NCBI GenBank assembly: GCA_964399555.1
Contig: CAYNRM010000002.1
Coordinates: 4,071-30,859, forward strand
Direction of reading: 5' to 3'
Length of the DNA: 26,789 nt
Origin: an uncultured Gammaproteobacteria bacterium
Lineage (GTDB): Bacteria; Patescibacteriota; Microgenomatia; Daviesbacterales; UBA10151
Shown here: piece after piece, positions 6,130-23,901 of the stretch
How positions within the stretch are numbered: position 1 is the first letter of the stretch
Layout of the letters: every line of letters begins with the position of its first letter
Notes under the pieces: generated by a model
Told to the model about the DNA's origin: nothing
What the model saw: only the letters and a program-made list of their open reading frames with translations
The model's database searches: none
Translations under genes and position numbers: made by a program

Positions 6130-6161
6130 AAAATGCTGAATAAATTATAGCCGACTTCCGG

Positions 6162-6962: not shown

Positions 6963-6984
6963 TTTTTTATCCGCGAAGTAATTA

Positions 6985-6990
6985 TATAAT
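6985..6990 (+). promoter_or_regulatory. -10 box for a probable leaderless transcript of the ABC ATPase
   Basis: TATAAT at 6985-6990, exactly 6 nt before ATG 6997, with no Shine-Dalgarno sequence. Confidence 0.55.
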
Positions 6991-6996
6991 GAATTA

Positions 6997-7917
6997 ATGG
7001 CTATTTTAAATGTCAAGAATCTAACAAAAAAATTTAAAGACTTTACAGCAGTTAACGATATTTCTTTCGAACTAAGAGAAGGAGAGATACTGGGTTTCCT
7101 CGGTCCCAATGGTGCTGGAAAAACAACGACTATTCAAATGCTACTAGGAATACTAACACCAACGTCAGGCTCCATCGAATATTTCGGTAAAGATCTGTTA
7201 AAACATCGTGAGGAGATTCTGGAGCAGGTTAACTTCTCAACCACTTACACCAACTTACCCTGGGTTTTGAAAGTTTCTGAATGTCTAACATTTATATCCT
7301 ACTTATATGATATAAAAAACAGAAAAGAACGGATCAAAGAACTAGTCGAAGTCTTCGACTTGGGCGGACTTTTAAATAAAAACATCAGCAGTTTGTCCTC
7401 TGGTCAAAACACCAGAGTAAATCTAGCCAAATCATTTATTAACAACCCGAAAGTACTACTTTTAGATGAACCGACTGCATCCTTAGATCCAGAAACTGCT
7501 GATATGGTGAGAAAGATTTTATTAAAAGAGCAGAAAGAGCATGGAATTTCAATAATTTTAACTTCCCACAACATGAATGAAGTAGAAACAGTCTGCAATC
7601 GTGTAATTTTCATAAATAACGGTACGATAGTCGCGAACGACACACCTCAGTCACTTGCTAAAACAATCAAAATCTCCCACATCGAATTAAGATTTGATGA
7701 GGGAATCAACCAGGCCATAGAGTTCTGTGAAATGCAAAAATTAATTAGTCGAAAAGACGGTAAATACCTGACAGTAGATATTAAGGAAGTAGATATCCCA
7801 AATTTCTTAAAAACTTTAATCGATAAAGAATTGTTCTACTCAGAAATAAGTATAGAAAAGCCCTCGCTTGAGGATTACTTTTTAGAAAATATAAAAATAG
7901 AAAGGAAGGAAGCATGA
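6997..7917 (+). CDS. ABC-2 type exporter ATP-binding subunit
   Basis: Walker A GPNGAGKTT, signature LSSGQ, Walker B LLLDEPT, H-loop TSH. Confidence 0.95.
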   Translation: MAILNVKNLTKKFKDFTAVNDISFELREGEILGFLGPNGAGKTTTIQMLLGILTPTSGSIEYFGKDLLKHREEILEQVNFSTTYTNLPWVLKVSECLTFISYLYDIKNRKERIKELVEVFDLGGLLNKNISSLSSGQNTRVNLAKSFINNPKVLLLDEPTASLDPETADMVRKILLKEQKEHGISIILTSHNMNEVETVCNRVIFINNGTIVANDTPQSLAKTIKISHIELRFDEGINQAIEFCEMQKLISRKDGKYLTVDIKEVDIPNFLKTLIDKELFYSEISIEKPSLEDYFLENIKIERKEA

Positions 7918-8696: not shown

Positions 8697-10070
8697 TTAT
8701 GTACTGAGTTTAATTACCTGTCCTGTTAAATACTCTTTATTATTCTTCTCAGGTTTCTCTAATACTTCTTGAAAAAGTTCATTCAGAATTTCCCCAATTT
8801 TAGGTCCCGGTTTAATCTGTAAAATCTCCATAACCTCAGATCCGTTAATCTTCAAATCCGAAATCGAAAATGGTTTCGTCATAACTTCCTCAATTCTTTT
8901 TTTAAATTCCTCAGTCCTCCAGGAAGTCTCGGTCATTGTCCCGCCGCCTAATCTATCCCCAACCCTAACCGCCATCATGTCATCAATGTTTTCATAACCA
9001 ACATTTTTTATAAATCTTCTGATTGCCGAATCTGTTTGATGTTCTGAAACAGTAAACATATGCCACCTCACTAATGCATGTAATTTCTCAATCTGTTTTG
9101 AAGAAAGTCGAAGTCTCTTTCCGGTTTCTTTAACAAGTCTGGCGCCAACAGTTTCGTGTCCGTAAAAAGTCACATTCCCCTGAGCGTCTTTCCTGAATGT
9201 ATCAAGCTTTCCAATATCATGCACCAAACATGCCAGCCTAACGAGCGGGTCCTTACTTGGGCAAAATTTTAAAGAAAGAAGCAGATGCTCGCCAATATCA
9301 TAAATCCTGTCATGCTTAGGGCCTTCCTGAACAATCCCAAAACATCTTGTCACCTCAGGCAAAATATACTCTAATAGACCAATTTCTTTTAACGTAATAA
9401 TTCCTTCATAAAAATTATCAGATTCTAAAATCTTAAATAATTCATCCCGGATCCTTTCCCAGGAAATATTCTGTATCAACTTTGCGTTTTCTTTTATTGA
9501 AGCAAAAGTTTTCTCTTCTATGTCAAAGTTTAGTTGACTGCTAAATCTAACTGCCCGCATCATCCTTAATGCATCTTCCTGGAATCTTTTATCTGCCTCC
9601 CCAACAGCGCGGATTAGTTTCATCTTAAGATCTCCCTGTCCTTTAAATGGATCAACAAGAGTTGGTTTTCCTGATTCACTCAGTTCCATAGCCATTGCAT
9701 TGATAGTGAAATCTCTCCTAGCCAGATCCTCTTCAATGTCTTTAGTCCACGAAACCTCAGTAGGATGACGTGAATCCTCATAAACCCCTTCCTTCCTCAT
9801 GGTGGTAATCTCAAGTATTTGTGCGGTTGAAGTCTGAGAGCTGACGTCTGAAAGCTTAATTCCCACAGTTCCAAACTGATTGTTGTAGAACCCGTCAGGA
9901 AACAGCTCGAGAATTTGCTCCGGCGTAGCAGACGTAGTTAAGTCCCAATCCTTGTGAGCGCGTTTAAGCAAAATATCCCGCACAACTCCGCCGACTAAAT
10001 AAATTTTAAAGTCAGCTTTTATAAATTTGCTAATAACCTGATAGACCTCATCTGGTAAAATAATTTCCAT
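8697..10070 (-). CDS. cca: Class II CCA tRNA nucleotidyltransferase with HD domain
   Basis: VGGVVRD, DWD, EITTMR, DLARRDFTINAM, EDALRMMRAVRF, ERIRDELFK, HDIGK. Confidence 0.93.
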   Translation of the reverse strand: MEIILPDEVYQVISKFIKADFKIYLVGGVVRDILLKRAHKDWDLTTSATPEQILELFPDGFYNNQFGTVGIKLSDVSSQTSTAQILEITTMRKEGVYEDSRHPTEVSWTKDIEEDLARRDFTINAMAMELSESGKPTLVDPFKGQGDLKMKLIRAVGEADKRFQEDALRMMRAVRFSSQLNFDIEEKTFASIKENAKLIQNISWERIRDELFKILESDNFYEGIITLKEIGLLEYILPEVTRCFGIVQEGPKHDRIYDIGEHLLLSLKFCPSKDPLVRLACLVHDIGKLDTFRKDAQGNVTFYGHETVGARLVKETGKRLRLSSKQIEKLHALVRWHMFTVSEHQTDSAIRRFIKNVGYENIDDMMAVRVGDRLGGGTMTETSWRTEEFKKRIEEVMTKPFSISDLKINGSEVMEILQIKPGPKIGEILNELFQEVLEKPEKNNKEYLTGQVIKLST

Positions 10071-10076
10071 TATTGA

Positions 10077-10082
10077 ATTGTA
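10077..10082 (-). promoter_or_regulatory. -10 box for a probable leaderless cca transcript
   Basis: Minus-strand TACAAT 6 nt before ATG 10070, within an 18-bp divergent gap. Confidence 0.5.
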
Positions 10083-10088
10083 CTAGAT

Positions 10089-11684
10089 ATGACTAAAGTT
10101 TGGAAAATCAAAGAAAAACTCTCTGAAGACACAATAGAGCAGCTACTCATCAATCGCGGTATAAACTCAGAGGAAGAGAAAGAAAAATTTTTTAACCCTA
10201 AGATTGAAAACTACAAAAAAGAATTGGAAATTCCCGGAATTGAAAGAAGTCTAAAAAGAATTCAAAAAGCAATTGAAACAGGAGAGCAAATTGTAGTTTT
10301 TGGTGATTACGATGTTGATGGAGTTACCGCCTCAGCAATCTTATACAAAGCGCTAACTTCCCTCGGCGCTAAAGTCATGCCCTACATTCCTCACAGGGAA
10401 AGGGAAGGTTACGGCTTATCCAAATTAGGCCTCGAATTCGCCCGGGACTCGGGCGCAACCGTTGTTATAACTGTAGATAACGGAATCGTCGCTATAGAAC
10501 AGGCAAAGTTTGCTAAAGAAATTGGACTGGATCTAATAATCACCGACCATCATACTCTGAGTAGCGAAAAGCCAGACGCTTACTCAATCGTTCACTCCAC
10601 TAAAATGTGCGGAGCAGCTGTAGCCTGGTGCTTAATCCGCAGTGTTATAAAAGAAGATTTGGCTCAGGAACTACTACAGTTCGTAGCAGTTGCTACTATC
10701 GCCGACATGATGCCTCTAATCGGTCTAAACAGAGCATTCGTAACAGAAGGCACAAAAGTTCTAAACAAAACCAAGAATCTGGGATTTCTGGCGTTATTTG
10801 CTGAGTGCCGCCTGGAAAGAGGTGAGTTGAAGTCTTTCGATATCGGGCACGTTATCGCTCCCAGAATTAACGCCATCGGCAGGCTTGAGCACGCCATAGA
10901 TGCGCTAAGACTTTTATGCACCAAAGATCCAGTCAAAGCCAGAAGACTGGCCAGGCTCTTAAACGACACAAACGTCAGGCGTCAGGATATGACTTTAGAA
11001 GCGTACACTCAGGCAGTCAAAATGGCTGAACAAAATATTGATAAAAAAATTCAGGTTCTCTACTCAAAAGATTGGCACCAGGGAATAATCGGCTTAATCG
11101 CTGGGAGAATCACTGAACAATACGCACTCCCTACTATAGCGATCTCGGTAGGTGAAACAATTTCCAAAGGTTCAGCCAGAAGCATAAACGGTATAAACAT
11201 AACGGAGGTTTTAAGAAGCTGTGCAGACAATTTAATAGACGTCGGAGGCCATGCCGGAGCAGCCGGATTTAGTGTGGAAACTAAAAAAATTGAAGTTCTA
11301 AAAGCAAAGCTCGAAGCCGCTGTATCCAAAATATCAACTGAAGCATTTGGAAAATTTTTAGACATCGAAGCAGAAATCCCCATTTCTAAACTAACAAAAA
11401 CATTAGCCAAAAAACTTGAAGACTTTGAACCCTTCGGCCTGCAAAACCCCAGACCGGTATTCGCCAGTTTTAATTTAAAGTCATCAGACACAAGAACACT
11501 TAGCGCCGGCAAGCATCTGAAATTCAAAGCTGACGGAATAGATGCAATTGCTTTTAGCATGGGAGAACTTGAATCGTTTATCCAATCAGGCCAGCTGCTG
11601 AACTTGGCTTACAACCTGGAAATAAATAAATTCAACGGCAATGAAAATCTTCAATTTAAAGTTAAAGATATTCAGCTTAATTAA
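10089..11684 (+). CDS. recJ: Single-stranded DNA-specific exonuclease RecJ
   Basis: GDYDVDG, ITVDNG, ITDHH, ATIADMMPL, APRINAIGRL, KGSARS, GGHAGAAG, PFGLQNPRP, HLKF. Confidence 0.97.
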   Translation: MTKVWKIKEKLSEDTIEQLLINRGINSEEEKEKFFNPKIENYKKELEIPGIERSLKRIQKAIETGEQIVVFGDYDVDGVTASAILYKALTSLGAKVMPYIPHREREGYGLSKLGLEFARDSGATVVITVDNGIVAIEQAKFAKEIGLDLIITDHHTLSSEKPDAYSIVHSTKMCGAAVAWCLIRSVIKEDLAQELLQFVAVATIADMMPLIGLNRAFVTEGTKVLNKTKNLGFLALFAECRLERGELKSFDIGHVIAPRINAIGRLEHAIDALRLLCTKDPVKARRLARLLNDTNVRRQDMTLEAYTQAVKMAEQNIDKKIQVLYSKDWHQGIIGLIAGRITEQYALPTIAISVGETISKGSARSINGINITEVLRSCADNLIDVGGHAGAAGFSVETKKIEVLKAKLEAAVSKISTEAFGKFLDIEAEIPISKLTKTLAKKLEDFEPFGLQNPRPVFASFNLKSSDTRTLSAGKHLKFKADGIDAIAFSMGELESFIQSGQLLNLAYNLEINKFNGNENLQFKVKDIQLN

Positions 11685-11728
11685 ATCAGCTGGAAGAGGA
11701 GATTATGTGCGTTTAGTATACATACGAC

Positions 11729-11756
11729 TGGACATTAGCTGATTAAGTGATATACT
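11729..11756 (+). promoter_or_regulatory. Putative promoter of the aro leader and operon
   Basis: TGGACA (11729-11734), 16-nt spacer, extended -10 TGaTATACT (11748-11756). The predicted TSS is about 11763. Confidence 0.6.
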
Positions 11757-11766
11757 TATTTAAGTA

Positions 11767-11832
11767 ATGAAGAAACATTCAAATTGGTTTAGCTTTACAT
11801 ATTTTTACTTCCGAAAGGAGGAGGCCTCCTAG
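11767..11832 (+). CDS. Aromatic amino acid attenuation leader peptide MKKHSNWFSFTYFYFRKEEAS
   Basis: ATG 11767 to TAG 11832. Codons 7-15 are TGG TTT AGC TTT ACA TAT TTT TAC TTC (1 Trp, 4 Phe, 2 Tyr), directly upstream of a terminator and the aro operon. Confidence 0.85.
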   Translation: MKKHSNWFSFTYFYFRKEEAS

Positions 11833-11867
11833 TATCCTAAAAGGATATTAGTGAGAATCAGGCCTCC
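11808..11867 (+). promoter_or_regulatory. Attenuator alternative structures: GNRA protector/pause hairpin and antiterminator
   Basis: cttcc-GAAA-ggagg (11808-11821). Antiterminator: ggaggcct (11820-11827) is perfectly complementary to aggcctcc (11860-11867) and encloses the hairpin ctagtatcct-aaa-aggatattag (11829-11851). Confidence 0.75.
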
Positions 11868-11886
11868 CAAATGGGAGGTTTTTTTT
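11861..11886 (+). terminator. Intrinsic (attenuator) terminator
   Basis: Stem cctccc (11863-11868) / gggagg (11873-11878), loop aaat, followed by 8 T (11879-11886). Confidence 0.88.
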
Positions 11887-12754
11887 GTCGAAAACTATGA
11901 TAAATATAACAAAATTAACATCGGATAAAATAATAATTGCTGGTCCCTGTGCTGCTGAAACGCGCGAGCAGGTTCTTGAAAGCGCTAAGCAAGCCAAAAA
12001 GCGTGGAGTAAAAATCCTAAGAGCCTCCCTCTGGAAACCCAGGACTGAGCCCGGATTTGATGGTGTAAAAGAGAAAGGTATTGAGTGGCTGGTTGAGGTC
12101 GCAAAAATGGGATTAACCCCAGGAACAGAAGTTCTAAATGCTAGAAACACTAAAGCTGTTTTAACTGCTATTGCTAAAAATGTCGAAAACCCTTCAGCCC
12201 TAATCTGGATAGGTGCCCGAAACCAAAATCATGACGAACAAGTCGCAATTGTTAAAGCAGTAAAAAAATACCCTTGGGCGCGCTTCATGTTTAAAAACCA
12301 ACCATGGAGACACGAAAAGCATTGGAGGGGAATATTAAAACATGTGCTTTCAACAAAAATTGGTAAAGACAAGATCTTTCTCTCTCACCGGGGATTTGAC
12401 CCAGGAACGGATGAGCCCCGCGACCCAAAAGAATTAAGGAACTTCCCTGATTACCAAATGGCAATGCGCGTTAAAACCGAAGAGGATGTCCAAATGATTA
12501 TCGATCCTTCCCATATGGGTGGCACTGTCGACAATGTCATAAGGATTTCTAAAGAAGCCATGCGCCACAAAGAAGCAGGTACTTCCTTTGACGGTTTCAT
12601 TTTTGAAATTCATCCAAATCCAACTATCGCCTGGACCGATGCTAAGCAGCAGTTAACATGGGAGCAGTTTGATGAGTTAATGGATGAATATCAAAATCTC
12701 CATAAAGAACCACAAGTCAAAACTAAATCTGCTCAAACTCAAGCCTCATTCTGA
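11885..12754 (+). CDS. aroF: DAHP synthase type I-beta, catalytic barrel only
   Basis: AGPC, WKPRT, EV, WIGAR, FKN, HRGF, RN, DPSH, EIHP..AWTD: all four metal ligands (C, H, E, D) and KPRT are present. The start is TTG 11885 or ATG 11897. Confidence 0.88.
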   Translation: MSKTMINITKLTSDKIIIAGPCAAETREQVLESAKQAKKRGVKILRASLWKPRTEPGFDGVKEKGIEWLVEVAKMGLTPGTEVLNARNTKAVLTAIAKNVENPSALIWIGARNQNHDEQVAIVKAVKKYPWARFMFKNQPWRHEKHWRGILKHVLSTKIGKDKIFLSHRGFDPGTDEPRDPKELRNFPDYQMAMRVKTEEDVQMIIDPSHMGGTVDNVIRISKEAMRHKEAGTSFDGFIFEIHPNPTIAWTDAKQQLTWEQFDELMDEYQNLHKEPQVKTKSAQTQASF

Positions 12755-14379
12755 TGTTAGATCAAAATTCAAAGATCCATATAGTTGGAGGAACAGGAGC
12801 AATGGGGACATGGCTCCGGATTTTTCTGGAGTCACTTAATTTTTCCGTTTCTGTTAGTGATGAAAATAAAGGGGAAGAAGAGATTGAAAAAGCAGACATT
12901 GTTTTTATCTCGGTGCCGATTAATCTTGCTCCGCAAATAATCTTACAAACTGCTCCCAAAACTAAACATGAGTGTTTAATGGTCGACCTCTCCTCAATAA
13001 AGTCGGAGACCAAAAAAGCTTTAGAAAATTGCGGCAGATCATCTCTGTCCTTGCACTTTCTTTTCGGGCCAACGCTCAGTTCTATCCAAAATCAAAAAAT
13101 TATTTCTGAAAAGTTCAAGCAGTCAAAAATTGCTGACGATCTGGTACAAGTTTTTAAAAAGGAAGGCGCTCAAATTATAGAATTACCCAGCGATCTTCAT
13201 GATCTAACAATGGCTCACATTCAATCCCTGACTCATTTTATAAATCTTTCCCTAGCTCAAATTCTTATAAAAAACAAAATCGGAATTTCCGGTCAAATCT
13301 CAACACCCGTTTTCTTATCACAACTTTCCGCAACCCTAAGAGTTCTTTCTCAAAGTCCAAAGTTGTTAAGTGAAATCCAAACCCAAAATCCTGAATTTAT
13401 CAATGTAGTCGAGGATTATCTGGAGATTCAAAAAGATCTGGTTAAAAAGATTAAAACCGGTGATGTTAAAGAAATAGAAAAACAATATGCAGGCTTGAGA
13501 GAAAATTTAGAATCTATTTCCGGAACTACTGACAATAGCAAAAGAGTAGTTGAAGATAAAGTATTAGAACCCAAGAATCTTAAAGTCGGTTTCTTAGGTC
13601 CAAAAGGCACGTTCTCAAGTCAGGCAGTTTTGAAATTATTTAATGAAACAGACAATCGGCTTATTGCCTGTAAAAGTATCTACGATTTATTCGATAGCCT
13701 AGATAAAAATCTTGTTGATGTCATAGTGGCCCCCGCCGAAAATACTACTGAAGGAACTGTGAGAGAAACACTTGACTACTTATTTGATCACAAATTTAAG
13801 ATTATTGGAAAAATTGATTTACCAGTTTCTCAATGTCTTCTATCAAAGGAATCAGATTTGAAAAATATAACTAAAATAATCTCTCACCCTCAGGCGCTTA
13901 ACCAGTCGAGAAAATTTCTCGAAGATAATCTGCCCGATGCCATACTCGAGACAAGTGCCTCAACAGTTGCTTCAACAGAAGAGTTAGATAAAAAAGGGGT
14001 AGCCATAATCGGTTCAGAACTTGCAGCGAAGATTTATAAATTGAACACCCTAAAAAAAGATATCCAGGGTTATGACCAAAATACGACTCGATTTAATATA
14101 ATTGCCAAACGCGACATGCTTAATCTGCCGGGCAGAAGTAAAAGTCTTCTTTTCCTGTCTGTTTTTAACCGGGTTGGTGTTTTAAGAGACATCTTATCCG
14201 TTTTTGCTGACCTCTCAATAAATTTGAATAAAATTGAGTCGCGACCGTCAGGAGAAAAGCATTGGGACTATTACTTTTATATAGAGGTTGAGTCAACCGA
14301 TGAACATCCTAAATTCTTGCAAGCTCTTGATATCCTTAAACAGTATTGTCCTCAGATAATAGTTTTAGGTAAACTCTAA
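12754..14379 (+). CDS. tyrA-pheA: Fused prephenate dehydrogenase (TyrA) and prephenate dehydratase with ACT domain (PheA)
   Basis: N-half: IVGGTGAMG Rossmann motif, DLSSIK, SLHFLFGP, HDLTMAHIQSLTH. C-half: FLGPKGTFS, ENTTEGTV, SHPQAL, NTTRF, NKIESRP, YYFYIE. TGATG overlap with the upstream gene. Confidence 0.92.
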   Translation: MLDQNSKIHIVGGTGAMGTWLRIFLESLNFSVSVSDENKGEEEIEKADIVFISVPINLAPQIILQTAPKTKHECLMVDLSSIKSETKKALENCGRSSLSLHFLFGPTLSSIQNQKIISEKFKQSKIADDLVQVFKKEGAQIIELPSDLHDLTMAHIQSLTHFINLSLAQILIKNKIGISGQISTPVFLSQLSATLRVLSQSPKLLSEIQTQNPEFINVVEDYLEIQKDLVKKIKTGDVKEIEKQYAGLRENLESISGTTDNSKRVVEDKVLEPKNLKVGFLGPKGTFSSQAVLKLFNETDNRLIACKSIYDLFDSLDKNLVDVIVAPAENTTEGTVRETLDYLFDHKFKIIGKIDLPVSQCLLSKESDLKNITKIISHPQALNQSRKFLEDNLPDAILETSASTVASTEELDKKGVAIIGSELAAKIYKLNTLKKDIQGYDQNTTRFNIIAKRDMLNLPGRSKSLLFLSVFNRVGVLRDILSVFADLSINLNKIESRPSGEKHWDYYFYIEVESTDEHPKFLQALDILKQYCPQIIVLGKL

Positions 14380-14381
14380 AC

Positions 14382-14660
14382 ATGGATAAATTGAAAATGT
14401 TGCGAAAACTTATCGATGACATAGATAACCAACTCCTGGATCTAGTAAAAAGCCGGATGGATGTGGTTGTCGAAATTGGCAATGTAAAAACAGAAAATAA
14501 TGTGGAAGTCGTAGATAAAGAAAGGGAAGAGCAAATATATGTTCGGTTACTTGCTAAAGCAAAAGAGAAAGGTGTAAAACCCGAGGTTGTAAAAAAAGTT
14601 TGGAAGTCTTTACTAGAAATTTCATATGAGATTGAAGGAGGCAAAAATGGAAAAAGTTAA
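14382..14660 (+). CDS. aroQ: Monofunctional chorismate mutase (AroQ, type II)
   Basis: LRKLIDDIDNQLLDLVKSRMDVVVEIGNVK..VVDKEREEQI is the AroQ pattern. Confidence 0.92.
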   Translation: MDKLKMLRKLIDDIDNQLLDLVKSRMDVVVEIGNVKTENNVEVVDKEREEQIYVRLLAKAKEKGVKPEVVKKVWKSLLEISYEIEGGKNGKS

Positions 14661-15687
14661 TGTGTTAAACAAATATCAGGTATATATTGGTTCTGGGTTA
14701 TTAGGAAATATTTACTCAATTATTGATACTAATGGTTTCAGTAAAATTATTGTAATCACTGATGATAAAATCCCCTCTAATTATCTTTCAGAATTTGAGA
14801 AGATCTCTATTTCGTCCGGAGAAGAGAATAAAACAATAGAAACAGTCAAAGAGATCTGGGAGCAAATGTTAAAGCTCGGTTGCGATCGCAAAACTTTAGT
14901 TATTAATTTAGGCGGGGGGGTAATCGGTGATATCGGCGGGTTCGCTGCCAGCTGTTATATGAGAGGAGTAAAATTTCTTCAGATCCCGACAACATTATTA
15001 TCTGCAGTAGACGCCAGTGTTGGAGGCAAGGTCGGGATAGATTTTTCAGGAATAAAAAATCTCATCGGTTCATTCAATCAGCCCATCGGAGTGATAGTCG
15101 ATATAGAGACATTCAATTCATTACCGGATCGGGAATTTATCTCAGGCTTCGGAGAAATAATAAAACACGGTCTTATCGCCGATCCGGATTATTTTAAATT
15201 TGTCACCTCAAAAAAACCTCGTGAATTTTCTCAAGACGAACTAATTGAAATTATAAAAAAATCCTGTGAAATAAAAGCCGCCATAATCTCCGGAGACGAA
15301 AAAGAATCTGGCAGCCGCAAACTGCTTAACTTTGGCCACACCATTGGTCATGCGCTCGAAAGCGCTTCCCTGCAATCACAAAAACCACTACTGCACGGTG
15401 AAGCAGTTGCGATTGGCTCAATTGCTGAAGCTAAAATTTCCTTTGACTTGGGGCTAATCGAAGATAAAGAACTATCTATTATCCAACAAGCCCTGGAAGC
15501 AGCGGGGTTACCGGTAAGTTTCAAAGTTGAAGATATCGATAAAATTATGGAACTAATTTCAAAAGACAAAAAATCTCAGTCTGGTAAAATAAGCTGGACT
15601 TTATTAAATAGTATTGGCTCAGCAGTCATCGATAATCAAGTTGAAAAGAATATTGTTCTTTCCTCGCTTGAATACATTTCAGACTGA
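14647..15687 (+). CDS. aroB: 3-dehydroquinate synthase
   Basis: GEENK, LGGGVIGDIGGF, YMRG, PTTLLSAVDASVGGK, KNLIG, GEIIKHG, LNFGHTIGHALE, HGEAVAIG, DKK. SD gaaggagg precedes ATG 14647. Confidence 0.97.
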   Translation: MEKVNVLNKYQVYIGSGLLGNIYSIIDTNGFSKIIVITDDKIPSNYLSEFEKISISSGEENKTIETVKEIWEQMLKLGCDRKTLVINLGGGVIGDIGGFAASCYMRGVKFLQIPTTLLSAVDASVGGKVGIDFSGIKNLIGSFNQPIGVIVDIETFNSLPDREFISGFGEIIKHGLIADPDYFKFVTSKKPREFSQDELIEIIKKSCEIKAAIISGDEKESGSRKLLNFGHTIGHALESASLQSQKPLLHGEAVAIGSIAEAKISFDLGLIEDKELSIIQQALEAAGLPVSFKVEDIDKIMELISKDKKSQSGKISWTLLNSIGSAVIDNQVEKNIVLSSLEYISD

Positions 15688-15693
15688 TTCTTA

Positions 15694-16971
15694 ATGAACA
15701 AACTACAAATCATTCCCACAAATAATATTTCTGGAGTAGTCGATGTTCCCGGCTCAAAAAGCTATACCAACAGAGCGCTAATTATCGCCTCATTAATTAA
15801 AGGATCAGTCACGATAAAAAATCCTCTAAAATCAGACGATGTCTCGGTTATGATCAAGTGTCTTATAACACTTGGAATTGAAATAAAAGAAAATAGCGAA
15901 AGTATCCAAGTTATTGGAGATATTTCAGAGGTAAAAGATCAGGAATACCAATTAAACGCCCAACTGTCTGGAACTACAATTAGATTCATTCTGGCGCTGT
16001 CCTGCATTATTCCTGGAGTAAAAATAATCAGCGGAGATGATTCCTTAAATAATAGACCTATCGGTGAATTAGCAGGCGCCCTGAAAGATCTAGGAGCGAA
16101 AATCGAGTATTTAAAAAAACCAGGTTACCCACCATTAATCGTAAAATCATCATCACTTAGCCTAAAAGAAACCAGACTCCACGGTGATATTTCAAGTCAA
16201 TTCTTCTCAGCCCTCCTGATGATAGCCCCACTTATCGGCGGTATTAATATCGATGTGATGGGGGTTCAAATCTCAAAGCCTTATGTTGGGATGACCATAG
16301 ATCTTATGAAATATTTTGGAGTCAAAGTTGCGAATACCAACTTTAAAAAATATGTCGTTGAGCCATCACAAGGTTACGTCCTGAAAGATTATGTTGTCGA
16401 GGGTGACTACTCATCAGCTGGTTATTTCCTTGCAGCTGCCGCATTAACTAGTTCAACTCTTAGTCTTAAAAATCTCAACGAGAGTTCAATTCAGGCAGAT
16501 AAGAATTTTATCAATATTCTCAAAGACTTAGGAAGTGAAATTAATTTCCAAGGGTCTTATCTGATTATCAAAGGAGCTGGAGTAAAGCCAATGCGCGTTG
16601 ACATGGAAAACTGTCCTGACCAGGTACAAACATTAGCAGTTATACTGGCTTTCGCCAAAGGAAAATCCGTAATTACCGGTGTCAGATCTTTAAGAATTAA
16701 AGAAACCGAAAGAGTTCTTGCTTTGCAAAATGAATTATCAAAAATGGGAATAAAAACAGAATCAACAATCGACTCACTCACCATTTATGGTGGCAACCCG
16801 AAAGCTTCAGAAGTTAATACTTATAATGACCACCGAATGGCTATGTCGTTTGCCATAGCAGGAGTAGTTCTTCCGGGAATGATTATTAACAATCCTGAAG
16901 TCGTAACTAAAACATTCCCCGATTTCTGGGAAAAATTATCGGGTATTGGAATAAAATCTAATGAAATCTGA
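15694..16971 (+). CDS. aroA: 3-phosphoshikimate 1-carboxyvinyltransferase (EPSP synthase)
   Basis: PGSKSYTNR, SGTTIRF, NRPI, SSQFFSALL, SKPY, EGDYSSA, PD, LRIKETER, DHRMAM, KTFPDFW. Confidence 0.97.
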   Translation: MNKLQIIPTNNISGVVDVPGSKSYTNRALIIASLIKGSVTIKNPLKSDDVSVMIKCLITLGIEIKENSESIQVIGDISEVKDQEYQLNAQLSGTTIRFILALSCIIPGVKIISGDDSLNNRPIGELAGALKDLGAKIEYLKKPGYPPLIVKSSSLSLKETRLHGDISSQFFSALLMIAPLIGGINIDVMGVQISKPYVGMTIDLMKYFGVKVANTNFKKYVVEPSQGYVLKDYVVEGDYSSAGYFLAAAALTSSTLSLKNLNESSIQADKNFINILKDLGSEINFQGSYLIIKGAGVKPMRVDMENCPDQVQTLAVILAFAKGKSVITGVRSLRIKETERVLALQNELSKMGIKTESTIDSLTIYGGNPKASEVNTYNDHRMAMSFAIAGVVLPGMIINNPEVVTKTFPDFWEKLSGIGIKSNEI

Positions 16972-17599
16972 GAACCAAATTTCTACTGTAAACAAAATTT
17001 TCTTGGTCGGCTTTAGAGCCACCGGAAAAACTACGATTGGCAAAATCTTAGCCGAAAAACTGGACTGGTCTTTTTGGGACAGCGATTTCCTGATAACCCA
17101 GGAAGCAGGCCAGGATATTCAGAGCCTCACCAGGGGCGGGATAGACTGGCAAATATTTAGAAAAATTGAAAACCAGGTACTTTATGAATTATCCCGAATG
17201 GAAAACGTAGTTGTTAGTTGTGGAGGAGGAGTTGGTGTAAATGATGTGATAGATGAAATAACAAATAAAACTTTCGGGGACTTAAATAAAGAAATTCTTG
17301 ATAATACTAAAGAAAGCATAGTGATACTGCTCACCTCCAAAGATGAAAGTATTAAGACGAGATTAAAAAGGCAATACAAAAATAAAAAAATTATGCCATT
17401 CCTGAACACTGAAAATGCTAAGATGTCAAAAGACGAAAAAAACCTGGAAGTCTTGATAGAAAAACAAATTGAAGATTCTATGGCTACGTTTCAGGAAAGA
17501 AAATCTTTGTATAAGAGTCTTACAAGTATTATCATCGACACGGATAAAATGCCGCTGGGAAAAACAGCAGAGGAGATTATATCTTATGTCAGAAAATGA
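16961..17599 (+). CDS. aroK: Shikimate kinase (with insertions)
   Basis: P-loop GFRATGKTT, DSD, FRKIE, SCGGG, ERKSLY. Confidence 0.9.
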   Translation: MKSENQISTVNKIFLVGFRATGKTTIGKILAEKLDWSFWDSDFLITQEAGQDIQSLTRGGIDWQIFRKIENQVLYELSRMENVVVSCGGGVGVNDVIDEITNKTFGDLNKEILDNTKESIVILLTSKDESIKTRLKRQYKNKKIMPFLNTENAKMSKDEKNLEVLIEKQIEDSMATFQERKSLYKSLTSIIIDTDKMPLGKTAEEIISYVRK

Positions 17600-18410
17600 A
17601 CAATCAGGATTTAAAGTGTGTTTAATAATGGGTTTTCCTGTAAAAAATTCCAAATCTCCCGCCATGCACATGGCCGCTTATAAAGCGTTAGGAATCGATC
17701 AGGAATTTATATTTCTACCAGCTGAAGTCAAACCCGAGGGATTAGAGGAAGCAATAAATTCTGCCAGAAAATTGAATATAAAAGGCGTCAGTGTCACTAT
17801 GCCCTATAAGCAATCAGTCCTAAAATATCTTGATGTACTTGATGATGATGCGGAAGAAATAGGAGCAGTTAACACTATTGTTAATGACGAAGGAGAACTG
17901 GTAGGTTATAACACTGACTGGGTCGGAGCAATAACAGCTCTTGAAAAGAAAACTAATTTAAACGGTAAAAAGGTCGCAGTAATCGGGGCAGGTGGAGCAG
18001 CCAGAGCAATTGTATTTGGGTTAGTGAAGAAAGAAGCTACAGTTAAAATATTCAATCGCTCAAAAGAAAAAGCTGCTTCCCTTGCGCGAGACTTTGATGT
18101 CGATTTTGCGGGCCTGGAAGAAATAAATCAGCTAAGTCATTTCGACATAATAATAAACGCGACATCCATGGGAATGAATGATGATCAAAGTCCAATTGAT
18201 AAAGAATTAATTAACGAACACCACATAGTATTTGACGTTGTGTATACGCCTAAAGAAACCAGATTGATTAAAGACGCCAAAGAAAAAGGCGCTGAAGTAG
18301 TTTATGGATACGAAATGCTTTTATATCAAGGAGTTGAGCAATTCAAGTTGTATACTAAATACGAAGCCCCAGTAAGGGAAATGGAACAGGCTTTACTTGC
18401 CCAATTATGA
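17586..18410 (+). CDS. aroE: Shikimate dehydrogenase
   Basis: SKSPAMH, VTMPYK, GAVNT, NTD, GAGGAARA, NRS, NATS, DVVY, GYEMLLYQG. ATG 17586 has an aggag SD; the ORF-track start at 17469 is too far upstream. Confidence 0.96.
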   Translation: MSENEQSGFKVCLIMGFPVKNSKSPAMHMAAYKALGIDQEFIFLPAEVKPEGLEEAINSARKLNIKGVSVTMPYKQSVLKYLDVLDDDAEEIGAVNTIVNDEGELVGYNTDWVGAITALEKKTNLNGKKVAVIGAGGAARAIVFGLVKKEATVKIFNRSKEKAASLARDFDVDFAGLEEINQLSHFDIIINATSMGMNDDQSPIDKELINEHHIVFDVVYTPKETRLIKDAKEKGAEVVYGYEMLLYQGVEQFKLYTKYEAPVREMEQALLAQL

Positions 18411-19075
18411 AATATTGTCTTCCCATCATTAATGAGTCCAAAGAAGAGATCTTAAATCTGATCAAAGAAAACCCGGACTATGATTTTTATGAAATCTGGC
18501 TCTCTTATGTTAAAGATCTAGATACCGATTTCCTCAGGAAATTATCGGAGCAATTTAACGGCAAGCTAATCTTCCTTTTTAGAAAGCAAAACTTAGAAAA
18601 ATCTGATTTGGGTAACGAATTAAAAGAAAGAATAATTAAGATACTAGAAAATTCTGATAACTATATGGACTTTGACGTAAATGATGGTTCATGGGGTCTG
18701 GATTTCATAAAAACAAATAACTTAAACAATAAAAAAATTGCCTCATTCCACGATTACCAAAAAACCCCCGATCCCGATTCTCTTACTAAAATTATAAAAG
18801 CTATGGAGAACTATAACCCAGAGATTTTTAAAGTTTCGACATTTTGTAAAACATCTAAGGATGGATTAAAATTATTGGAACTGCTTCTGGATTTAAAAGA
18901 AGAGAATAAGAAATTTATCGTGCTGGGTATGGGAGACGAGGGAAAGATTGTTCGCCTATACGGAGCTCTTTGGGGTAATGAATTAAATTTTGCTCCAATT
19001 AACGAAGAAGATTCTTCAGCTCCAGGACAATTCAGTAAAGAAAAATTAGAGAAAATTTTGGAGGAAATAAAATAG
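18407..19075 (+). CDS. aroD: Type I 3-dehydroquinate dehydratase
   Basis: LFR, SFHDY (catalytic His), FKVST (Schiff-base Lys), GMG..G..VR, APGQ. Confidence 0.88.
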
Positions 19076-20157
19076 TGCCAGGAAATACATTTGGACAATT
19101 ATTTAAAGTAACAACTTTTGGTGAATCGCATGGCGGTTGCGTTGGTTGTGTGATCGACGGCTGTCCTCCGGGAATCGAAATATCAGAAGCAGAAATCCAA
19201 AAAGAAATGGACAGAAGAAAGCCGGGTCAGTCCGCAATAACTTCACCCAGAAAAGAAGAAGACGAAATAAAAATTCTGTCTGGTTATTTTGAAGGAAAAA
19301 CAACTGGCACTCCCATTCTAATGCTTGCCTACAATAAAGACATGCGTCCTGAGGATTATGATCATCTAAAAAACGTCTACCGCCCATCACATGCCGACTT
19401 CACCTACGAACAAAAATACGGTTATCGCGATTTCCGCGGATCTGGCCGTGCCTCAGCACGAGAAACCCTAGCTCGTGTTGCAGCTGGAGCCATCGCCAAA
19501 AAATACCTCAACCAAAGACTGGGAATCAAGATTCTATCCTTTGTTTCTCAAGTCGGGGATATAAAAACTGACATAGATTTTAATTCAGTAACTGAAGAAC
19601 AAATTGAGTCAAATATAGTTAGGTGTCCTGATTCGCAAACCGCCGAAAAGATGATAGCACTAATTGAAAAAATGCGTGACTCAGGGGATTCAATTGGCGG
19701 GGTAATAACTTGCGTCATAAGAAATGTCCCTGCCGGCTTAGGGGAACCAGTCTTTGATAAGCTAAATGCTGACTTAGGGAAAGCCATGCTTTCTATAAAT
19801 GCCGTCAAAGGATTTGAAATCGGCTCAGGCTTCGCCGGCGTTACTAAACCTGGAAGCGAACACAACGACGAGTTCATAATTTCTGATGGAAAAATAAGAA
19901 CTAGGACCAATAATTCAGGCGGCATACTTGGCGGCATCTCAAATGGCGAAACAATCTATTTCCGTGTCGCCTTCAAAAGCGTTTCAACTATTATGAAAAA
20001 ACAAAACACAGTCAACAGAAGTCTGGAAGAAGTTGAACTAGAAGCCTCCGGCCGCCACGACCCCTGCGTCCTCCCCAGAGCAGTCCCCATAGTCGACGCC
20101 ATGTCCGCCCTCACAATAATAGACCACCACCTCCGCCACAAAGCCCAAAATTCTTGA
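19075..20157 (+). CDS. aroC: Chorismate synthase
   Basis: [74 protein letters not shown] start overlapping the aroD TAG. Confidence 0.98.
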
Positions 20158-20166
20158 AATATCAAA

Positions 20167-20195
20167 TTGACATAATAACTGAGCAATCCTATAAT
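20167..20195 (+). promoter_or_regulatory. Perfect-consensus sigma70 promoter, likely leaderless
   Basis: TTGACA (20167-20172), 17 nt, TATAAT (20190-20195), 7 nt, ATG 20203. Confidence 0.8.
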
Positions 20196-20202
20196 TCTTT
20201 TC

Positions 20203-20517
20203 ATGTCTAAAGATAATGAGGTTGTAATTATTAATTTTGTGACTCGCCAAAAACAAGTTCTTGAGAAAAATCCAGTAGAAGAAATTGAAGAGGTTGAGGC
20301 TTCTAATAAAACTACTCACCTCTGCAGAACTGAAAGAAATAGAAATGGAACATATAGCATGCAAGATACAAGATATAACAAGGGGGAATTAATTGGATAT
20401 AGTGGAGGCGCAAGTATTCCTCTGGATGCTTTAATAGATAGGTTACCTCTTATTGGAGATTTAAGACCTGTCATGGGAGCTCTTCAATCTATTAGAGATA
20501 TAAAAATTAAGAAATAA
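20203..20517 (+). CDS. Hypothetical protein (104 aa)
   Basis: The ORF fills the aroC-aspS gap and has its own consensus promoter. No recognised motif. Confidence 0.6.
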   Translation: MSKDNEVVIINFVTRQKQVLEKNPVEEIEEVEASNKTTHLCRTERNRNGTYSMQDTRYNKGELIGYSGGASIPLDALIDRLPLIGDLRPVMGALQSIRDIKIKK

Positions 20518-20533
20518 ATTAAACTCCTGCACA

Positions 20534-20562
20534 TTGTAAGCTAGGCTCATTTTTGATATCAT
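20534..20562 (+). promoter_or_regulatory. Putative aspS promoter
   Basis: TTGTAA (20534-20539), 17 nt, TATCAT (20557-20562) preceded by TG, 9 nt before ATG 20572. Confidence 0.6.
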
Positions 20563-20571
20563 TTCCAGGTT

Positions 20572-21891
20572 ATGAATCGGACACTTATTTTAGATTGTAA
20601 TGACAAGGTCGGTGAAATGGTTTCTATCTCCGGATGGGTTCAAGTTAGGCGTGATCACGGGAAAATTGGCTTCCTTGATGTTGCAGACAGAACCGGCATA
20701 ATCCAGGTATTTTGTACCAAAGAAAACTTAGGAGAAATTAGGCCTCAGGATGTCGTCGAAATAACCGGCACAGTTGCCGCCCGTCCCGAAAAGTTAATCA
20801 ATGAAAATCTCCCAACCGGAAAAATTGAACTTCAATCAGAAACAGTCAAAGTCTTATCTAAAGCCGCCGAACTCCCTTTTGATTTAGCAATGAAAGAACT
20901 CGATCTGCAACTGCCTACACTACTAGATTTTAGATCCTTAACTTTGCGTCACCCAAAAATAAAAGCTATCTTCGAAGTCCAGGCTGCGTTACTGGAAGGT
21001 TTTAGAAAAGCCTGTACCGAATTGGATTGTAAAGAAATAGTAGTTCCAGAAATCTCAGCCTCATCAACCGAAGGCGGCGCCGAAGTATTTAAAGTAGATT
21101 ACTATGGTTTCCCCGCTTTCATGACCCAAAGCCCTCAACTCTACAAACAAATGTTGGTCCCTGTTTTCGAAAGAGTTTACACTATCGCTCATGCATATCG
21201 CGCCGAGCCATCTGTTACGACCAGGCACTTATCAGTCTCAACCCAAATGGATTTTGAATTTGGTTTTGCCGAATTTAAAGAACTTCTCGACCTGATCGAA
21301 AAAATTGCTTTTGACATGTTTAAACACGCGCAAGACAAATCATCAAAAGCTTTGGAAATGTTCGGCGTCGACAAAATCGCTTTCGCTAAAGCCGTCCGCC
21401 TAACTTTAAGAGAGGCTCAGGAAATAATCTTCAAAGAAATAGGCAGAGATTCCAGAACTGAAAAAGATTTAGCCCCTCAAGATGAAATCGATATCTGCAA
21501 ATGGGCGCTAGAAAATCACAAAACAGATTTCGTAATTATTACTCATTTCCCAACTTCCAAAAGAGCCTTCTACACTAAACCAGATCCAGAAAATCCTGAG
21601 TACAGTTTAAGTTACGACATCTTATTCCGCGGCTTAGAAATTCTTTCTGGTTCCCAAAGAATTAACGATTACGATGAATTAGTAGAAGTTATCAAGCAAA
21701 GAAAAATGGATCCAAAGGATTTCGAAATGTACCTCCAGGCTTTCAAATATGGGATGCCTCCAGAGGGTGGAGGATCGTTCGGTTTGGAGAGATTAACTAT
21801 GCTTTTATTAAAGCTTGGTAATGTCCGCGAAGCCTCTTTATACCCGAGGGATATGGAGCGGGTAGACGTCCGTCTATCTACTCTCAGATAA
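20572..21891 (+). CDS. aspS: Archaeal-type non-discriminating aspartyl-tRNA(Asp/Asn) synthetase
   Basis: GWV..RDHG, EGGAEVF, QSPQLYKQ, YRAEPS..TRHL, EILSGSQR, YGMPPEGGGSFGLERL. 439 aa with no GAD insertion. Confidence 0.92.
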   Translation: MNRTLILDCNDKVGEMVSISGWVQVRRDHGKIGFLDVADRTGIIQVFCTKENLGEIRPQDVVEITGTVAARPEKLINENLPTGKIELQSETVKVLSKAAELPFDLAMKELDLQLPTLLDFRSLTLRHPKIKAIFEVQAALLEGFRKACTELDCKEIVVPEISASSTEGGAEVFKVDYYGFPAFMTQSPQLYKQMLVPVFERVYTIAHAYRAEPSVTTRHLSVSTQMDFEFGFAEFKELLDLIEKIAFDMFKHAQDKSSKALEMFGVDKIAFAKAVRLTLREAQEIIFKEIGRDSRTEKDLAPQDEIDICKWALENHKTDFVIITHFPTSKRAFYTKPDPENPEYSLSYDILFRGLEILSGSQRINDYDELVEVIKQRKMDPKDFEMYLQAFKYGMPPEGGGSFGLERLTMLLLKLGNVREASLYPRDMERVDVRLSTLR

Positions 21892-22874
21892 TGAAACTAC
21901 TGCCTAAAATAAATTTCTCTAAGTCTTCTGTGCGTAAGTTCAAAGTTTTGAGCTTGATTTTAGTATTAATTTCAGCATCAACATTATTCTTACTAACCGG
22001 CCCTCAAACTCTGGATTTAGTAGAAAGCAAAGTCTCCTCAGAAAATCTACAGCCGGCACCTAAGAACTTCGGAAGCACTGTCTTGGCAGAAACAATCGTA
22101 GTCCCTAAAATAGAACTAATTTCCGCCGACCTCCCGCAACCTGTCTTAACTGCTGTTGCAACTATCGCGTATGACCCGAACTTAGAAAAAATACTGTACC
22201 AAAAGAATATTCACACCAAACTTGCTCCGGCATCTACCACAAAAATTATGACAGCCATCATCGCCTCAGAGCACTACAATAGTGGCGATCTCCTAACAGT
22301 CCCGGCAGCTGCGATAGTCGGCGGCTCAACAATGGGCCTATCCGCCGGTGAGCAGTTAACATTCCGGAGTCTTCTCTATGGCATGATGTTAAATTCTGGA
22401 AATGATGCCGCCTATACCATTGCCTACAATTACCCAGGTGGTCTTGAATCCTTCATCGCCAAAATGAATGAACGAGCTGGTGTCCTTGGAGCTACTAACA
22501 CCCATTTTGATAATCCTGCCGGGTTTGATAGCGCAAATCACTATTCATCAGCTTACGACCTACTTTTAATAGGTAAAGAAGCCATGAAGAATGCCAGATT
22601 AGGAACCGTCTTTTCTACAAAAGAAACCTCTGTCACCTCAATAGATAAAACCCAAAGTCATGTTTTAAAGAATTTGAATAAATTATTAAAGGAAGATGGA
22701 GTATTAGGCATGAAAACCGGCACAACAGAAATGGCCGGAGAAAGCTTTGTCGGCTTAATCGAAAGAGATAATCAAACAATTTTAACGGTCATGTTGAATA
22801 GTCAGGATCGATTTGGGGAAACTAAAAATTTACTGGACTGGATTTTTAAAAATTACACCTGGAAGGTCAATTAG
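21891..22874 (+). CDS. D-alanyl-D-alanine carboxypeptidase (peptidase S11)
   Basis: N-terminal TM, PASTTK (SxxK), SGNDAA (SxN), HFDNPAG, KTG. Confidence 0.93.
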   Translation: MKLLPKINFSKSSVRKFKVLSLILVLISASTLFLLTGPQTLDLVESKVSSENLQPAPKNFGSTVLAETIVVPKIELISADLPQPVLTAVATIAYDPNLEKILYQKNIHTKLAPASTTKIMTAIIASEHYNSGDLLTVPAAAIVGGSTMGLSAGEQLTFRSLLYGMMLNSGNDAAYTIAYNYPGGLESFIAKMNERAGVLGATNTHFDNPAGFDSANHYSSAYDLLLIGKEAMKNARLGTVFSTKETSVTSIDKTQSHVLKNLNKLLKEDGVLGMKTGTTEMAGESFVGLIERDNQTILTVMLNSQDRFGETKNLLDWIFKNYTWKVN

Positions 22875-23901
22875 TTTTTTCAACATTCTCACTCGCTATT
22901 GCTGGCACAAACCCAACAAACTCAGGCCCTTCAAAAACATACACGGGCTGTAGATAATTAGCAAATTCCTCAGACAAATAATAAGCTAAATAAATTTTAG
23001 TGATCGAAGCATTACTTGTTCTTGGTTCAATCGCCACAAACCCTTCTCCGCTTTTTAATTCCTCAAAAGCATCAGACGAATTCTTAATAGGATAAGTCCC
23101 AAAATTCTCCAAATCAATTGGCCAAAATACGTAATCAAGGAGCGTATATTTTCTATCACTATTTCTATTGGAATTGCCGATTGCCTTAATTAATCCTTCC
23201 TTGAATTTTGGAGTCACAATAGGATAATCCTCAATACTTTCCTGCCATAAATTAACAGTTACTAAGTTACTGTCTTTTTTGATTTGATTATTATATAAAG
23301 CAGTAGTTTTGCCCGCCTTGAGTTGGTCTTTAAGTAAGCCTTTAGAGCTCAAATAGTTCTTCAGAATTTGACCCTGGTTATTCTCATTAATAAAATCCTC
23401 CACTCGGTCAAAACTCTCGCCGCTTCCTGTTGCAGCATTTCTTCTGAATTTAAAATTACCGGTATCTAAGTCAACAATAAGCTCTCCGCCGCTAATATTG
23501 TCGTTAAATTTATACTGTGTTGCAGATATAGCCTGGGGAGTTTTGCTAAAGTCTAGCGATCCAGCCAGACTCTTAGCCCTATCTAAAGCTAATAAATCAG
23601 TTGCCAGCTGGGCTACAGAGTAGACCTTAAATAACCTGGGTGTATCTTCTGGTAGCGCACCTGTTTCAGTATCAAGATTGTAGGAAAAACTGGATGAAGA
23701 AGATATTGAGTCTGGGAAAGCGATCTTGGGTAGAGGACCAAACACCAAAGTCGCCTCCTCCACAACCACCGGCAATCCAGGTAAATAAATATTGTTATAG
23801 TAATAATGCCAAATACCCCAGGAAGCAAACCCCACGAACAAGGTAATTACCGAAACGATCATACCTTTCTTCGTAAAAGCAGCAGCCTCTGTCAGGGTCA
23901 T
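22867..23901 (-). CDS. Membrane-anchored extracytoplasmic protein, possibly YycH/YycI-like fold
   Basis: N-terminal TM. The C-terminal YPIK..DAFEELK..ITKIYLAYY..YLQPVYVF is reminiscent of YycI-type domains; the fold call is tentative. Confidence 0.6.
   Translation of the reverse strand: MTLTEAAAFTKKGMIVSVITLFVGFASWGIWHYYYNNIYLPGLPVVVEEATLVFGPLPKIAFPDSISSSSSFSYNLDTETGALPEDTPRLFKVYSVAQLATDLLALDRAKSLAGSLDFSKTPQAISATQYKFNDNISGGELIVDLDTGNFKFRRNAATGSGESFDRVEDFINENNQGQILKNYLSSKGLLKDQLKAGKTTALYNNQIKKDSNLVTVNLWQESIEDYPIVTPKFKEGLIKAIGNSNRNSDRKYTLLDYVFWPIDLENFGTYPIKNSSDAFEELKSGEGFVAIEPRTSNASITKIYLAYYLSEEFANYLQPVYVFEGPEFVGFVPAIASENVEKTN

Follow-up and report, generated by a model that had tools for sequence, protein, structure and literature searches.

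A shikimate and phenylalanine/tyrosine operon with an aromatic leader in a Daviesbacteria-type genome of the candidate phyla radiation

Bacteria that belong to the candidate phyla radiation (CPR) are commonly described as lacking the means to synthesize most amino acids (PMC9938205). What, then, is to be made of a metagenome-assembled genome (MAG) of this group in which nine closely packed genes spell out the shikimate pathway and the branch toward phenylalanine and tyrosine? The genes lie on contig CAYNRM010000002.1 of assembly GCA_964399555.1, in a stretch of 26,789 nucleotides (nt) that was analysed as a whole and is called the window in what follows. Are they intact, are they regulated, and do they belong to their host or were they brought in from elsewhere? 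[quoted passage not shown] The answer to which the sequence points, and which is put forward with considerable confidence, is that the block is a native and functional aromatic amino-acid operon of a Daviesbacteria-type CPR bacterium, controlled by attenuation and vertically inherited in its family, with most lineages losing it.

Gene content and integrity of the enzymes

Nine co-directional open reading frames (ORFs) on the + strand fill positions 11885-20157, between recJ and aspS (Table 1). They yield ten activities, prephenate dehydrogenase (PDH) and prephenate dehydratase (PDT) being fused. An initial annotation, made from the letters, had read the block as the whole seven-step shikimate pathway together with chorismate mutase, PDH and PDT, with very tight junctions and largely intact catalytic motifs. 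The families are borne out by Pfam and NCBIfam, the junctions read exactly as quoted (TGATG at 12752, ATGA at 18407, TAGTG at 19073), and active-site motifs are present in every enzyme checked. The widest intergenic gap in the block, between aroB and aroA, is 6 nt; the likely starts of aroB (ATG 14647, after GGAGG) and aroE (ATG 17586, after GAGGAG) each leave a 14-nt overlap with the upstream stop. Because its junctions overlap or nearly touch, the block looks like one translationally coupled unit. AroB, AroA, AroE and AroC clear the curated NCBIfam cut-offs for equivalogs; for AroD, AroK and the DAHP synthase it is the Pfam gathering scores that are passed.

The DAHP synthase is the sole homologue of its kind in the genome and consists of the catalytic core only, with neither a regulatory nor a mutase extension. 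Aligned to the Thermotoga maritima enzyme (1RZM), it retains the Cys of GPC and the KPRT, GARN, RG, DPSH, E-x-HP and D-x-KQ motifs. The Cys, His, Glu and Asp that we take to be the metal ligands of 1RZM are all present, and so is KPR(S/T), not the KANRS of KDO8P synthase. More than 500 homologues of this AroF exist; all those with a named source are from CPR genomes, and NCBI calls them "hypothetical protein". In AroD, aligned to 3L9C, the His (sfHdy) and the Schiff-base Lys (fKvs), presumably the catalytic residues, are kept, as are the Arg and the SAPGQ motif. AroK keeps its P-loop and its DsD, FRxxE and GGG motifs, and, at 212 residues, exceeds its matches among solved shikimate kinases (168-185 residues) by about 40.

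In the fused protein the TyrA part (about residues 1-255) is followed by PheA and then by ACT. The TyrA part has the nucleotide-fold motif GxGxxG and, in an H-x-x-F-G-P motif (HFLFGP), the catalytic His101, which is invariant in 17 homologues; the PDT part has the TRF catalytic motif, and the ACT domain the ligand-binding motifs ESRP and G-x-L (GvL). Pfam finds no CM_2 match in the 541-residue chain: AroQ is a separate gene, and the N-terminal AroQ that distinguishes P- and T-proteins is absent. Collinear TyrA-PheA(-ACT) proteins of ~520-600 residues are found in metagenomes (about 80 clusters at 50% identity), and a 654-residue relative occurs in the DPANN archaeon Huberarchaeum.

How the operon would work can be set out as follows: 1) phosphoenolpyruvate and erythrose-4-phosphate would be condensed by the divergent, core-only type I-beta DAHP synthase; 2) AroB, the type I AroD, AroE, AroK, AroA and AroC would carry the product to chorismate; 3) the stand-alone AroQ would turn chorismate into prephenate; 4) the TyrA-PheA-ACT protein would partition prephenate to 4-hydroxyphenylpyruvate and phenylpyruvate; and 5) the final transamination would take place outside the block, probably by a HisC-type enzyme. 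These activities, and a specificity for prephenate rather than arogenate, are predicted from families and motifs.

Supporting genes are found elsewhere in the genome. Enolase, transketolase and transaldolase are there for precursor supply, and so are trpE-G-D-C and trpA, which chorismate would also feed. One operon combines a lysC-type kinase, dapB, dapA, asd, a DapL-type aminotransferase and a lysA-type decarboxylase. The his-operon genes are hisG, hisD and a fusion of histidinol-phosphate aminotransferase with a HAD-type hydrolase (620 residues; G000:C44:6524-8386, locus L032; G and L numbers are our handles for genomes and loci, G000 being the source MAG). The HAD domain of this fusion may be the missing histidinol phosphatase. 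The fusion was also considered as the orthologue of an aminotransferase that stands within the corresponding operon of sister genera, and was rejected in that role: the two share 25% identity over a local alignment of 177 residues.

The leader of the operon

Between recJ and aroF lie a leader ORF, an anti-terminator and an intrinsic terminator, preceded by a promoter-like site (Table 1). The design recurs in the family: a mini-ORF rich in Trp, Phe and Tyr codons, then a GC-rich hairpin with a U-run, precedes the operon in nine of ten loci, with sequences that differ from one to the next. The terminator hairpin is kept in all nine leaders that were aligned. For the anti-terminator pairing, 88.9% of cells are paired over the nine sequences and three pairs show compensatory change; sliding the partner by a single column, as a control, gives 62-70%. 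The Rfam models Phe_leader and Trp_leader find no match at gathering score in the window, and a scan of the window against Rfam as a whole matched no family.

The conservation of leader, terminator and anti-terminator implies attenuation control. Ribosomes stalling at the aromatic codons of the leader would free the anti-terminator; otherwise, transcription would end at the terminator before aroF. Such control fits a DAHP synthase that has no allosteric domain, and regulation by the supply of charged aromatic tRNA implies in turn that at times these cells have to rely on their own synthesis of Phe, Tyr and Trp.

Table 1. Features of the aro locus and its immediate flanks, in window coordinates
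Feature	Position	Strand	Remarks
recJ	10089-11684	+	conserved left flank; recJ-aspS linkage kept across the family
Promoter-like site, TGGACA, 16 nt, TG-TATACT	11729-11756	+	10/12 match with extended -10 TG; consensus match only; 10 nt before the leader ORF
Leader peptide MKKHSNWFSFTYFYFRKEEAS, 21 codons	11767-11832	+	7 aromatic residues in 9 consecutive codons
Putative anti-terminator, GGAGG(CC) at the end of the leader ORF pairing with the 5' arm of the terminator	11817-11868	+	alignment of 9 sequences
Putative intrinsic terminator, 9-bp GC-rich stem and U8	11860-11886	+	abuts aroF
aroF, DAHP synthase family I, type I-beta, core only	11885-12754	+	PF00793, 81 bits; start TTG 11885 or ATG 11897
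tyrA-pheA-ACT: PDH_N, PDH_C, PDT and ACT in a single 541-residue chain	12754-14379	+	Pfam/NCBIfam
aroQ, chorismate mutase CM_2, stand-alone, 92 residues	14382-14660	+	PF01817, 79.7 bits; best NCBIfam match CM_archaeal
aroB, 3-dehydroquinate synthase	14626-15687	+	TIGR01357, 352 bits (cut-off 305)
aroA, 5-enolpyruvylshikimate-3-phosphate (EPSP) synthase	15694-16971	+	TIGR01356, 413 bits (cut-off 287)
aroK, shikimate kinase	16961-17599	+	PF01202, 92 bits
aroE, shikimate dehydrogenase	17469-18410	+	NF001319, 290.7 bits (cut-off 252)
aroD, type I 3-dehydroquinate dehydratase	18407-19075	+	PF01487, 101.5 bits
aroC, chorismate synthase	19075-20157	+	TIGR00033, 494 bits (cut-off 212)
aspS	20572-21891	+	conserved right flank

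Host, descent and probable loss

Whose operon is it? The source MAG comprises 1.43 Mb in 202 contigs (40.1% GC, 88% complete, 3.2% contamination), with the aro block on contig 2, and genome sizes among its relatives at the levels of family, class and phylum are 0.5-2 Mb. Homologues of the TyrA-PheA fusion and of AroF carry the database labels Candidatus Daviesbacteria, Levybacteria or Patescibacteria group, and NCBI taxonomy places Daviesbacteria in the Microgenomates group of Patescibacteria. A search of this 88%-complete MAG did not find ribosomal proteins L30 and L9, whose loss Brown et al. in 2015 reportedly described as a CPR trait. These observations support a Daviesbacteria-type host within the Microgenomates: the contig belongs to the CPR, and the possibility raised with the initial annotation, that it comes from a prototrophic non-CPR taxon, falls away.

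Is the block native to that host? The initial annotation had remarked that parts of it look more AT-rich than secD, and had proposed a comparison of codon usage and of GC content at third codon positions (GC3). The difference is real (0.32-0.45 GC for the operon genes versus 0.433 for secD) but small: operon GC3 (0.29-0.39) lies inside the genome-wide range (0.372 +/- 0.072, 616 long ORFs), and against the same background the codon-usage distance of every aro gene falls between the 1st and the 74th percentile. On these measures the aro genes are native, with no signal of acquisition.

The surroundings of the block are likewise shared with its relatives. Chorismate synthase is present in all five congeners searched, and in four of them the gene order is that of the window as far as the contigs reach (those of G001 and G004 begin inside the operon). 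G003 and G005 each show on a single contig the order recJ-aroF-tyrApheA-aroQ-aroB-aroA-aroK-aroE-aroD-aroC-aspS-dacA-x-gltX-PCD, G005 continuing to MFS. Between window and congeners, AroF is 82-89% and AroC 78-89% identical, to be compared with 72% for RecJ and 75-92% for AspS in the flanks. Linkage of recJ to aspS, which the initial annotation had suggested looking for in sister genomes, extends throughout the 96-genome family: 58-90 bp separate the two genes in G012 and G010, and 0.4-10 kb do so in most genomes that lack aroC. The operon stands between them in eight genomes of several genera, in the orientation of its flanks in G000, G003 and G005, and inverted relative to them in G097, G099, G105, G074 and G111. 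Eleven aroC-minus genomes keep an aroF-like and/or a pheA (PDT-ACT) gene in the recJ-aspS gap (loci L154, L178, L158, L177, L155, L182, L145, L142, L143, L183 and L163), and across the family PDT occurs in 35 of the 96 genomes, aroC in 20. In G086 (C4:18652-19212) a TGA breaks the PDT match and the open frame has only 207 residues; it is possibly a pseudogene caught during loss of the pathway.

A tree of concatenated AroB, AroA, AroE, AroD and AroC recovers the genus as monophyletic (99/99), joins the pair G110 and G111 with G023 and G050, and unites G074, G012, G097 and G105; it agrees with the RecJ tree wherever the latter is resolved. AspS was tried as a second species marker and set aside, leaving RecJ alone: relative to the window it falls into two identity classes (~65-74% and ~51-59%) even inside one genus (for example G088 versus G089, L138 versus L159), and G071, G069, G077 and G066 have only a type that is 34-38% identical. 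These classes suggest replacement of the synthetase.

How widespread is the pathway? Chorismate synthase was found in six of six genomes of the genus, in 20 of 96 of the family (12 of 63 genera), in 21 of 301 of the class, in three families only, and in 29 of 401 of the phylum (genomes at least 80% complete). The complete chorismate pathway is thus a minority trait, held by some 7% of the Patescibacteria sampled and, within the family, by some 20%; that it is a notable capacity for a CPR bacterium, as first claimed, stands, and it is unusual without being unique. The family's AroC sequences group in a single clade (support 96 in the Shimodaira-Hasegawa-like approximate likelihood-ratio test); among the matches listed, its further members are two genomes of a second family, one MAG each of Levyibacteriota and Dojkabacteria, and a contig binned as Bacteroidia. 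Its neighbors, again among the matches listed, are a Bacteroidota/Chlorobiota and a Verrucomicrobiota/Desulfobacterota clade, and these matches point to no particular donor. A third Microgenomatia family has a very different AroC, only 37-40% identical. On the Bacteroidia-labelled contig (L036, DATHNG010000078.1) aroB, aroA, aroE and aroC form a cluster; either the contig comes from a CPR genome and was mis-binned, or a transfer has taken place. In other Patescibacteria, chorismate synthase matches are split into two or three pieces within long frames (G432:C11:21944-24160, 753 residues; G408:C9:4982-6616, 566 residues; G454:C13:16145-16990, 307 residues), which may reflect inteins or large insertions.

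Sister genera have a second architecture (L018, 4524-15757, in G105): transketolase, leader, an aroF-ACT fusion, aroB, an aroA-aroK fusion, aroE, aroD, aroC, aroQ, an aminotransferase and a tyrA-pheA without ACT. Compared with the window, its AroB, AroA, AroE and AroC are about 50-77% and its AroD 42-47% identical; the figures for AroF (~33%) and TyrA-PheA (24-27%) are much lower.

Might the locus be an artefact, a non-CPR aro operon joined onto CPR flanks by assembly or binning? The fragmentation of the MAG and its few per cent of contamination allow the thought, and a chimeric assembly was a danger named with the initial annotation. However, DNA of the window has been recovered from several microbial-mat metagenomes: contigs from other runs, a few single-nucleotide polymorphisms apart, cover 9000-16012 (cca, recJ, and aroF up to the first ~320 bp of aroA), a further independent contig covers 10987-13190, and others cover 18662-21910 (aroD, aroC, aspS) and 19465-23000. 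The block is not chimeric, because independent contigs span both of its ends, recJ|aroF and aroC|aspS; the two congeners with the same recJ...aspS arrangement, moreover, have it on contigs of 37-138 kb, and an artefact can for practical purposes be dismissed. Scarcely better placed is a recent acquisition from a non-CPR prototroph, to which the slight AT-richness relative to secD and the proximity of the CPR AroC clade to the Bacteroidota and Verrucomicrobiota clades (58-68% identity, among the matches listed) might be taken to point. This is very improbable when GC3 and codon usage are those of the genome, when the closest homologues of AroF, TyrA-PheA and AroC among the matches listed are from CPR (except for the one Bacteroidia-binned contig in the AroC clade), when CPR AroC sequences form a clade of their own, and when congeners share order, flanks and a flank-like degree of divergence, with a leader of the same design common to several genera. 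The block also bears none of the marks of a genomic island: composition is native, no mobile-element genes or tRNAs flank it (a tRNA scan of the window found none), and trees agree at resolved nodes. As a recent event, then, the "acquired block" of the initial annotation finds no support.

Transfer within the CPR is a more serious contender. Native composition, synteny, remnants at the recJ-aspS site and agreement between trees are together read as vertical descent with repeated loss: the operon core would have been inherited vertically, ancestrally near recJ and aspS, and most lineages would have lost the operon wholly or in part. Several points weigh against this reading of a native and working operon, and they concern both its history and its function. 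As to history, the proxy for the species tree is a single gene, RecJ, in a quick search over 70 genomes, unrooted and with many nodes unresolved, and counting changes on an unrooted tree does not separate gain from loss. In a tree of AroC alone, the congener G005 groups with other genera (97), so that some recombination or exchange within the family is possible. The block or an ancestor of it might accordingly have spread among CPR by horizontal transfer, or by homologous recombination at the recJ/aspS flanks, its patchiness then representing repeated gains; this would account for the position of G005, for the at least 11 changes in aroC presence on the RecJ tree (six of them forced by well-supported branches), for patchiness even inside genera (g79, g78 and g16), for an operon found in both orientations and at other sites, and for two such divergent architectures in one family. 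It is nonetheless unlikely, since the concatenated aro tree recovers the genus and other RecJ groupings, aroF-like and pheA remnants (one with a stop codon) lie at the same site in aroC-minus genomes, mobile-element genes and tRNAs are absent from the flanks, and composition is native. As to function, three enzymes fall short of the NCBIfam equivalog cut-offs (123 versus 268 bits for the DAHP synthase, 87 versus 139 for AroD and ~77 versus 161-204 for AroK), no aminotransferase lies within the block, and only two class I/II aminotransferases were found in the 88%-complete genome, the HisC-HAD fusion (above the HisC equivalog cut-off) and the DapL-type enzyme. The claim of a complete Phe/Tyr branch holds for chorismate mutase, PDH and PDT but not, within the block, for the last step. 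Do the genes, then, perhaps not confer Phe/Tyr prototrophy at all, chorismate serving other products or the pathway being incomplete without an aminotransferase, with aromatics still imported? The incompleteness of the genome and the general description of CPR bacteria (PMC9938205) could be cited in favor. Such a reading is quite improbable, given a leader rich in Trp, Phe and Tyr codons, which indicates control by the supply of aromatic aminoacyl-tRNA, given intact PDT, TyrA and an ACT domain with its ESRP motif, and given an aminotransferase in line in the sister operons; HisC-type enzymes, besides, widely serve as aromatic aminotransferases (PMC1173090), and one of these outside the block probably catalyzes the last transamination. 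The preferred reading of a functional operon, descended with its host, would make that host a prototroph for these amino acids.

If so, one can go a step further, with an assurance that falls somewhat short of even: the ancestor of the family may have been an aromatic-amino-acid prototroph with an attenuator-controlled supraoperon, and the present patchwork of complete operons, two architectures, stray aroF and pheA genes and a PDT pseudogene the outcome of a dozen or more independent, ongoing losses. The family would then offer a natural series for the slide of CPR bacteria into dependence; graded stages of loss are seen in it at one chromosomal site. A definable CPR minority with a complete chorismate pathway in any case qualifies the usual summary of CPR auxotrophy, and the source genome pairs this pathway with trp genes, several his genes and a dap/lysA lysine-pathway operon. 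Surveys of pathway completeness that are based on modules may under-count CPR biosynthetic capacity, AroF scoring below the thresholds of automatic annotation. None of the papers searched joins Daviesbacteria or Microgenomates with shikimate or chorismate; those CPR papers among them that name the shikimate module do so at survey level only.

(A note on the neighborhood: directly after aroC, at 20167-20195 on the + strand, stands a 12/12 match to the sigma-70 promoter consensus (TTGACA, 17 nt, TATAAT), which heads the next unit; downstream of it, in the region 20167-20517 (+), is a 104-residue ORF without family match. Congeners differ in the length of the aroC-aspS spacer, which is ~0.9 kb in G003 and <60 bp in G004 and G005. 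Beside gltX, at 25416-25739 on the - strand, lies a gene for pterin-4a-carbinolamine dehydratase (PCD), kept in congeners whose loci extend that far; phenylalanine hydroxylase (PF00351), a possible partner for it, was not found in the genome. The lowest-GC stretch of the window, 6000-7500 (0.31-0.33), holds a 315-residue minus-strand ORF, 6162-7109, without family match.)

Relation to known systems

In gene content the operon resembles the aro supraoperons of Gram-positive bacteria, in which shikimate and Phe/Tyr genes stand in a single transcription unit alongside a type I-beta DAHP synthase, and for several of which putative attenuators have been listed. The window differs from these in packing the seven steps, chorismate mutase, PDH and PDT into one block that appears translationally coupled, in fusing TyrA to PheA, in having a DAHP synthase without regulatory or chorismate mutase domain, and in its host, a reduced CPR genome. 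As for control, the elements seen in the window are also those of pheL and trpL in E. coli and of aroR, which lies upstream of aroF in Corynebacterium glutamicum (PMC11802643): a short ORF with consecutive aromatic codons, a terminator and an exclusive anti-terminator. Unlike them, the leader described here mixes Trp, Phe and Tyr codons, precedes a whole shikimate and Phe/Tyr operon, and belongs to a CPR bacterium.

The DAHP synthase is of the unadorned type I-beta kind known from Pyrococcus furiosus (1ZCO), Aeropyrum pernix (1VS1) and the core of the T. maritima enzyme, sharing with them the core barrel, the metal ligands and KPRT; it is nevertheless distant from these solved core-type enzymes (only ~90 bits in a phmmer search against solved structures) and is ~25-30 residues longer than that of P. 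furiosus (289 versus 262 residues).

The fusion has two kinds of relatives. The catalytic domains are those of the E. coli P-protein (AroQ-PheA, with an ESRP-bearing ACT) and T-protein (AroQ-TyrA), and among solved structures the TyrA part comes closest to the T-protein of H. influenzae; where E. coli attaches each of two enzymes to the mutase, the window joins the two prephenate-competing enzymes to each other instead. The N-to-C order TyrA ... PheA-ACT is that of the TyrA-AroQ-PheA-ACT protein of Archaeoglobus fulgidus (PMC1173090), with the difference that the window chain lacks AroQ and that chorismate mutase is the next gene. The best NCBIfam matches of the window's chorismate mutase and PDH include archaeal models, whereas the named close homologues of the fusion are from CPR.

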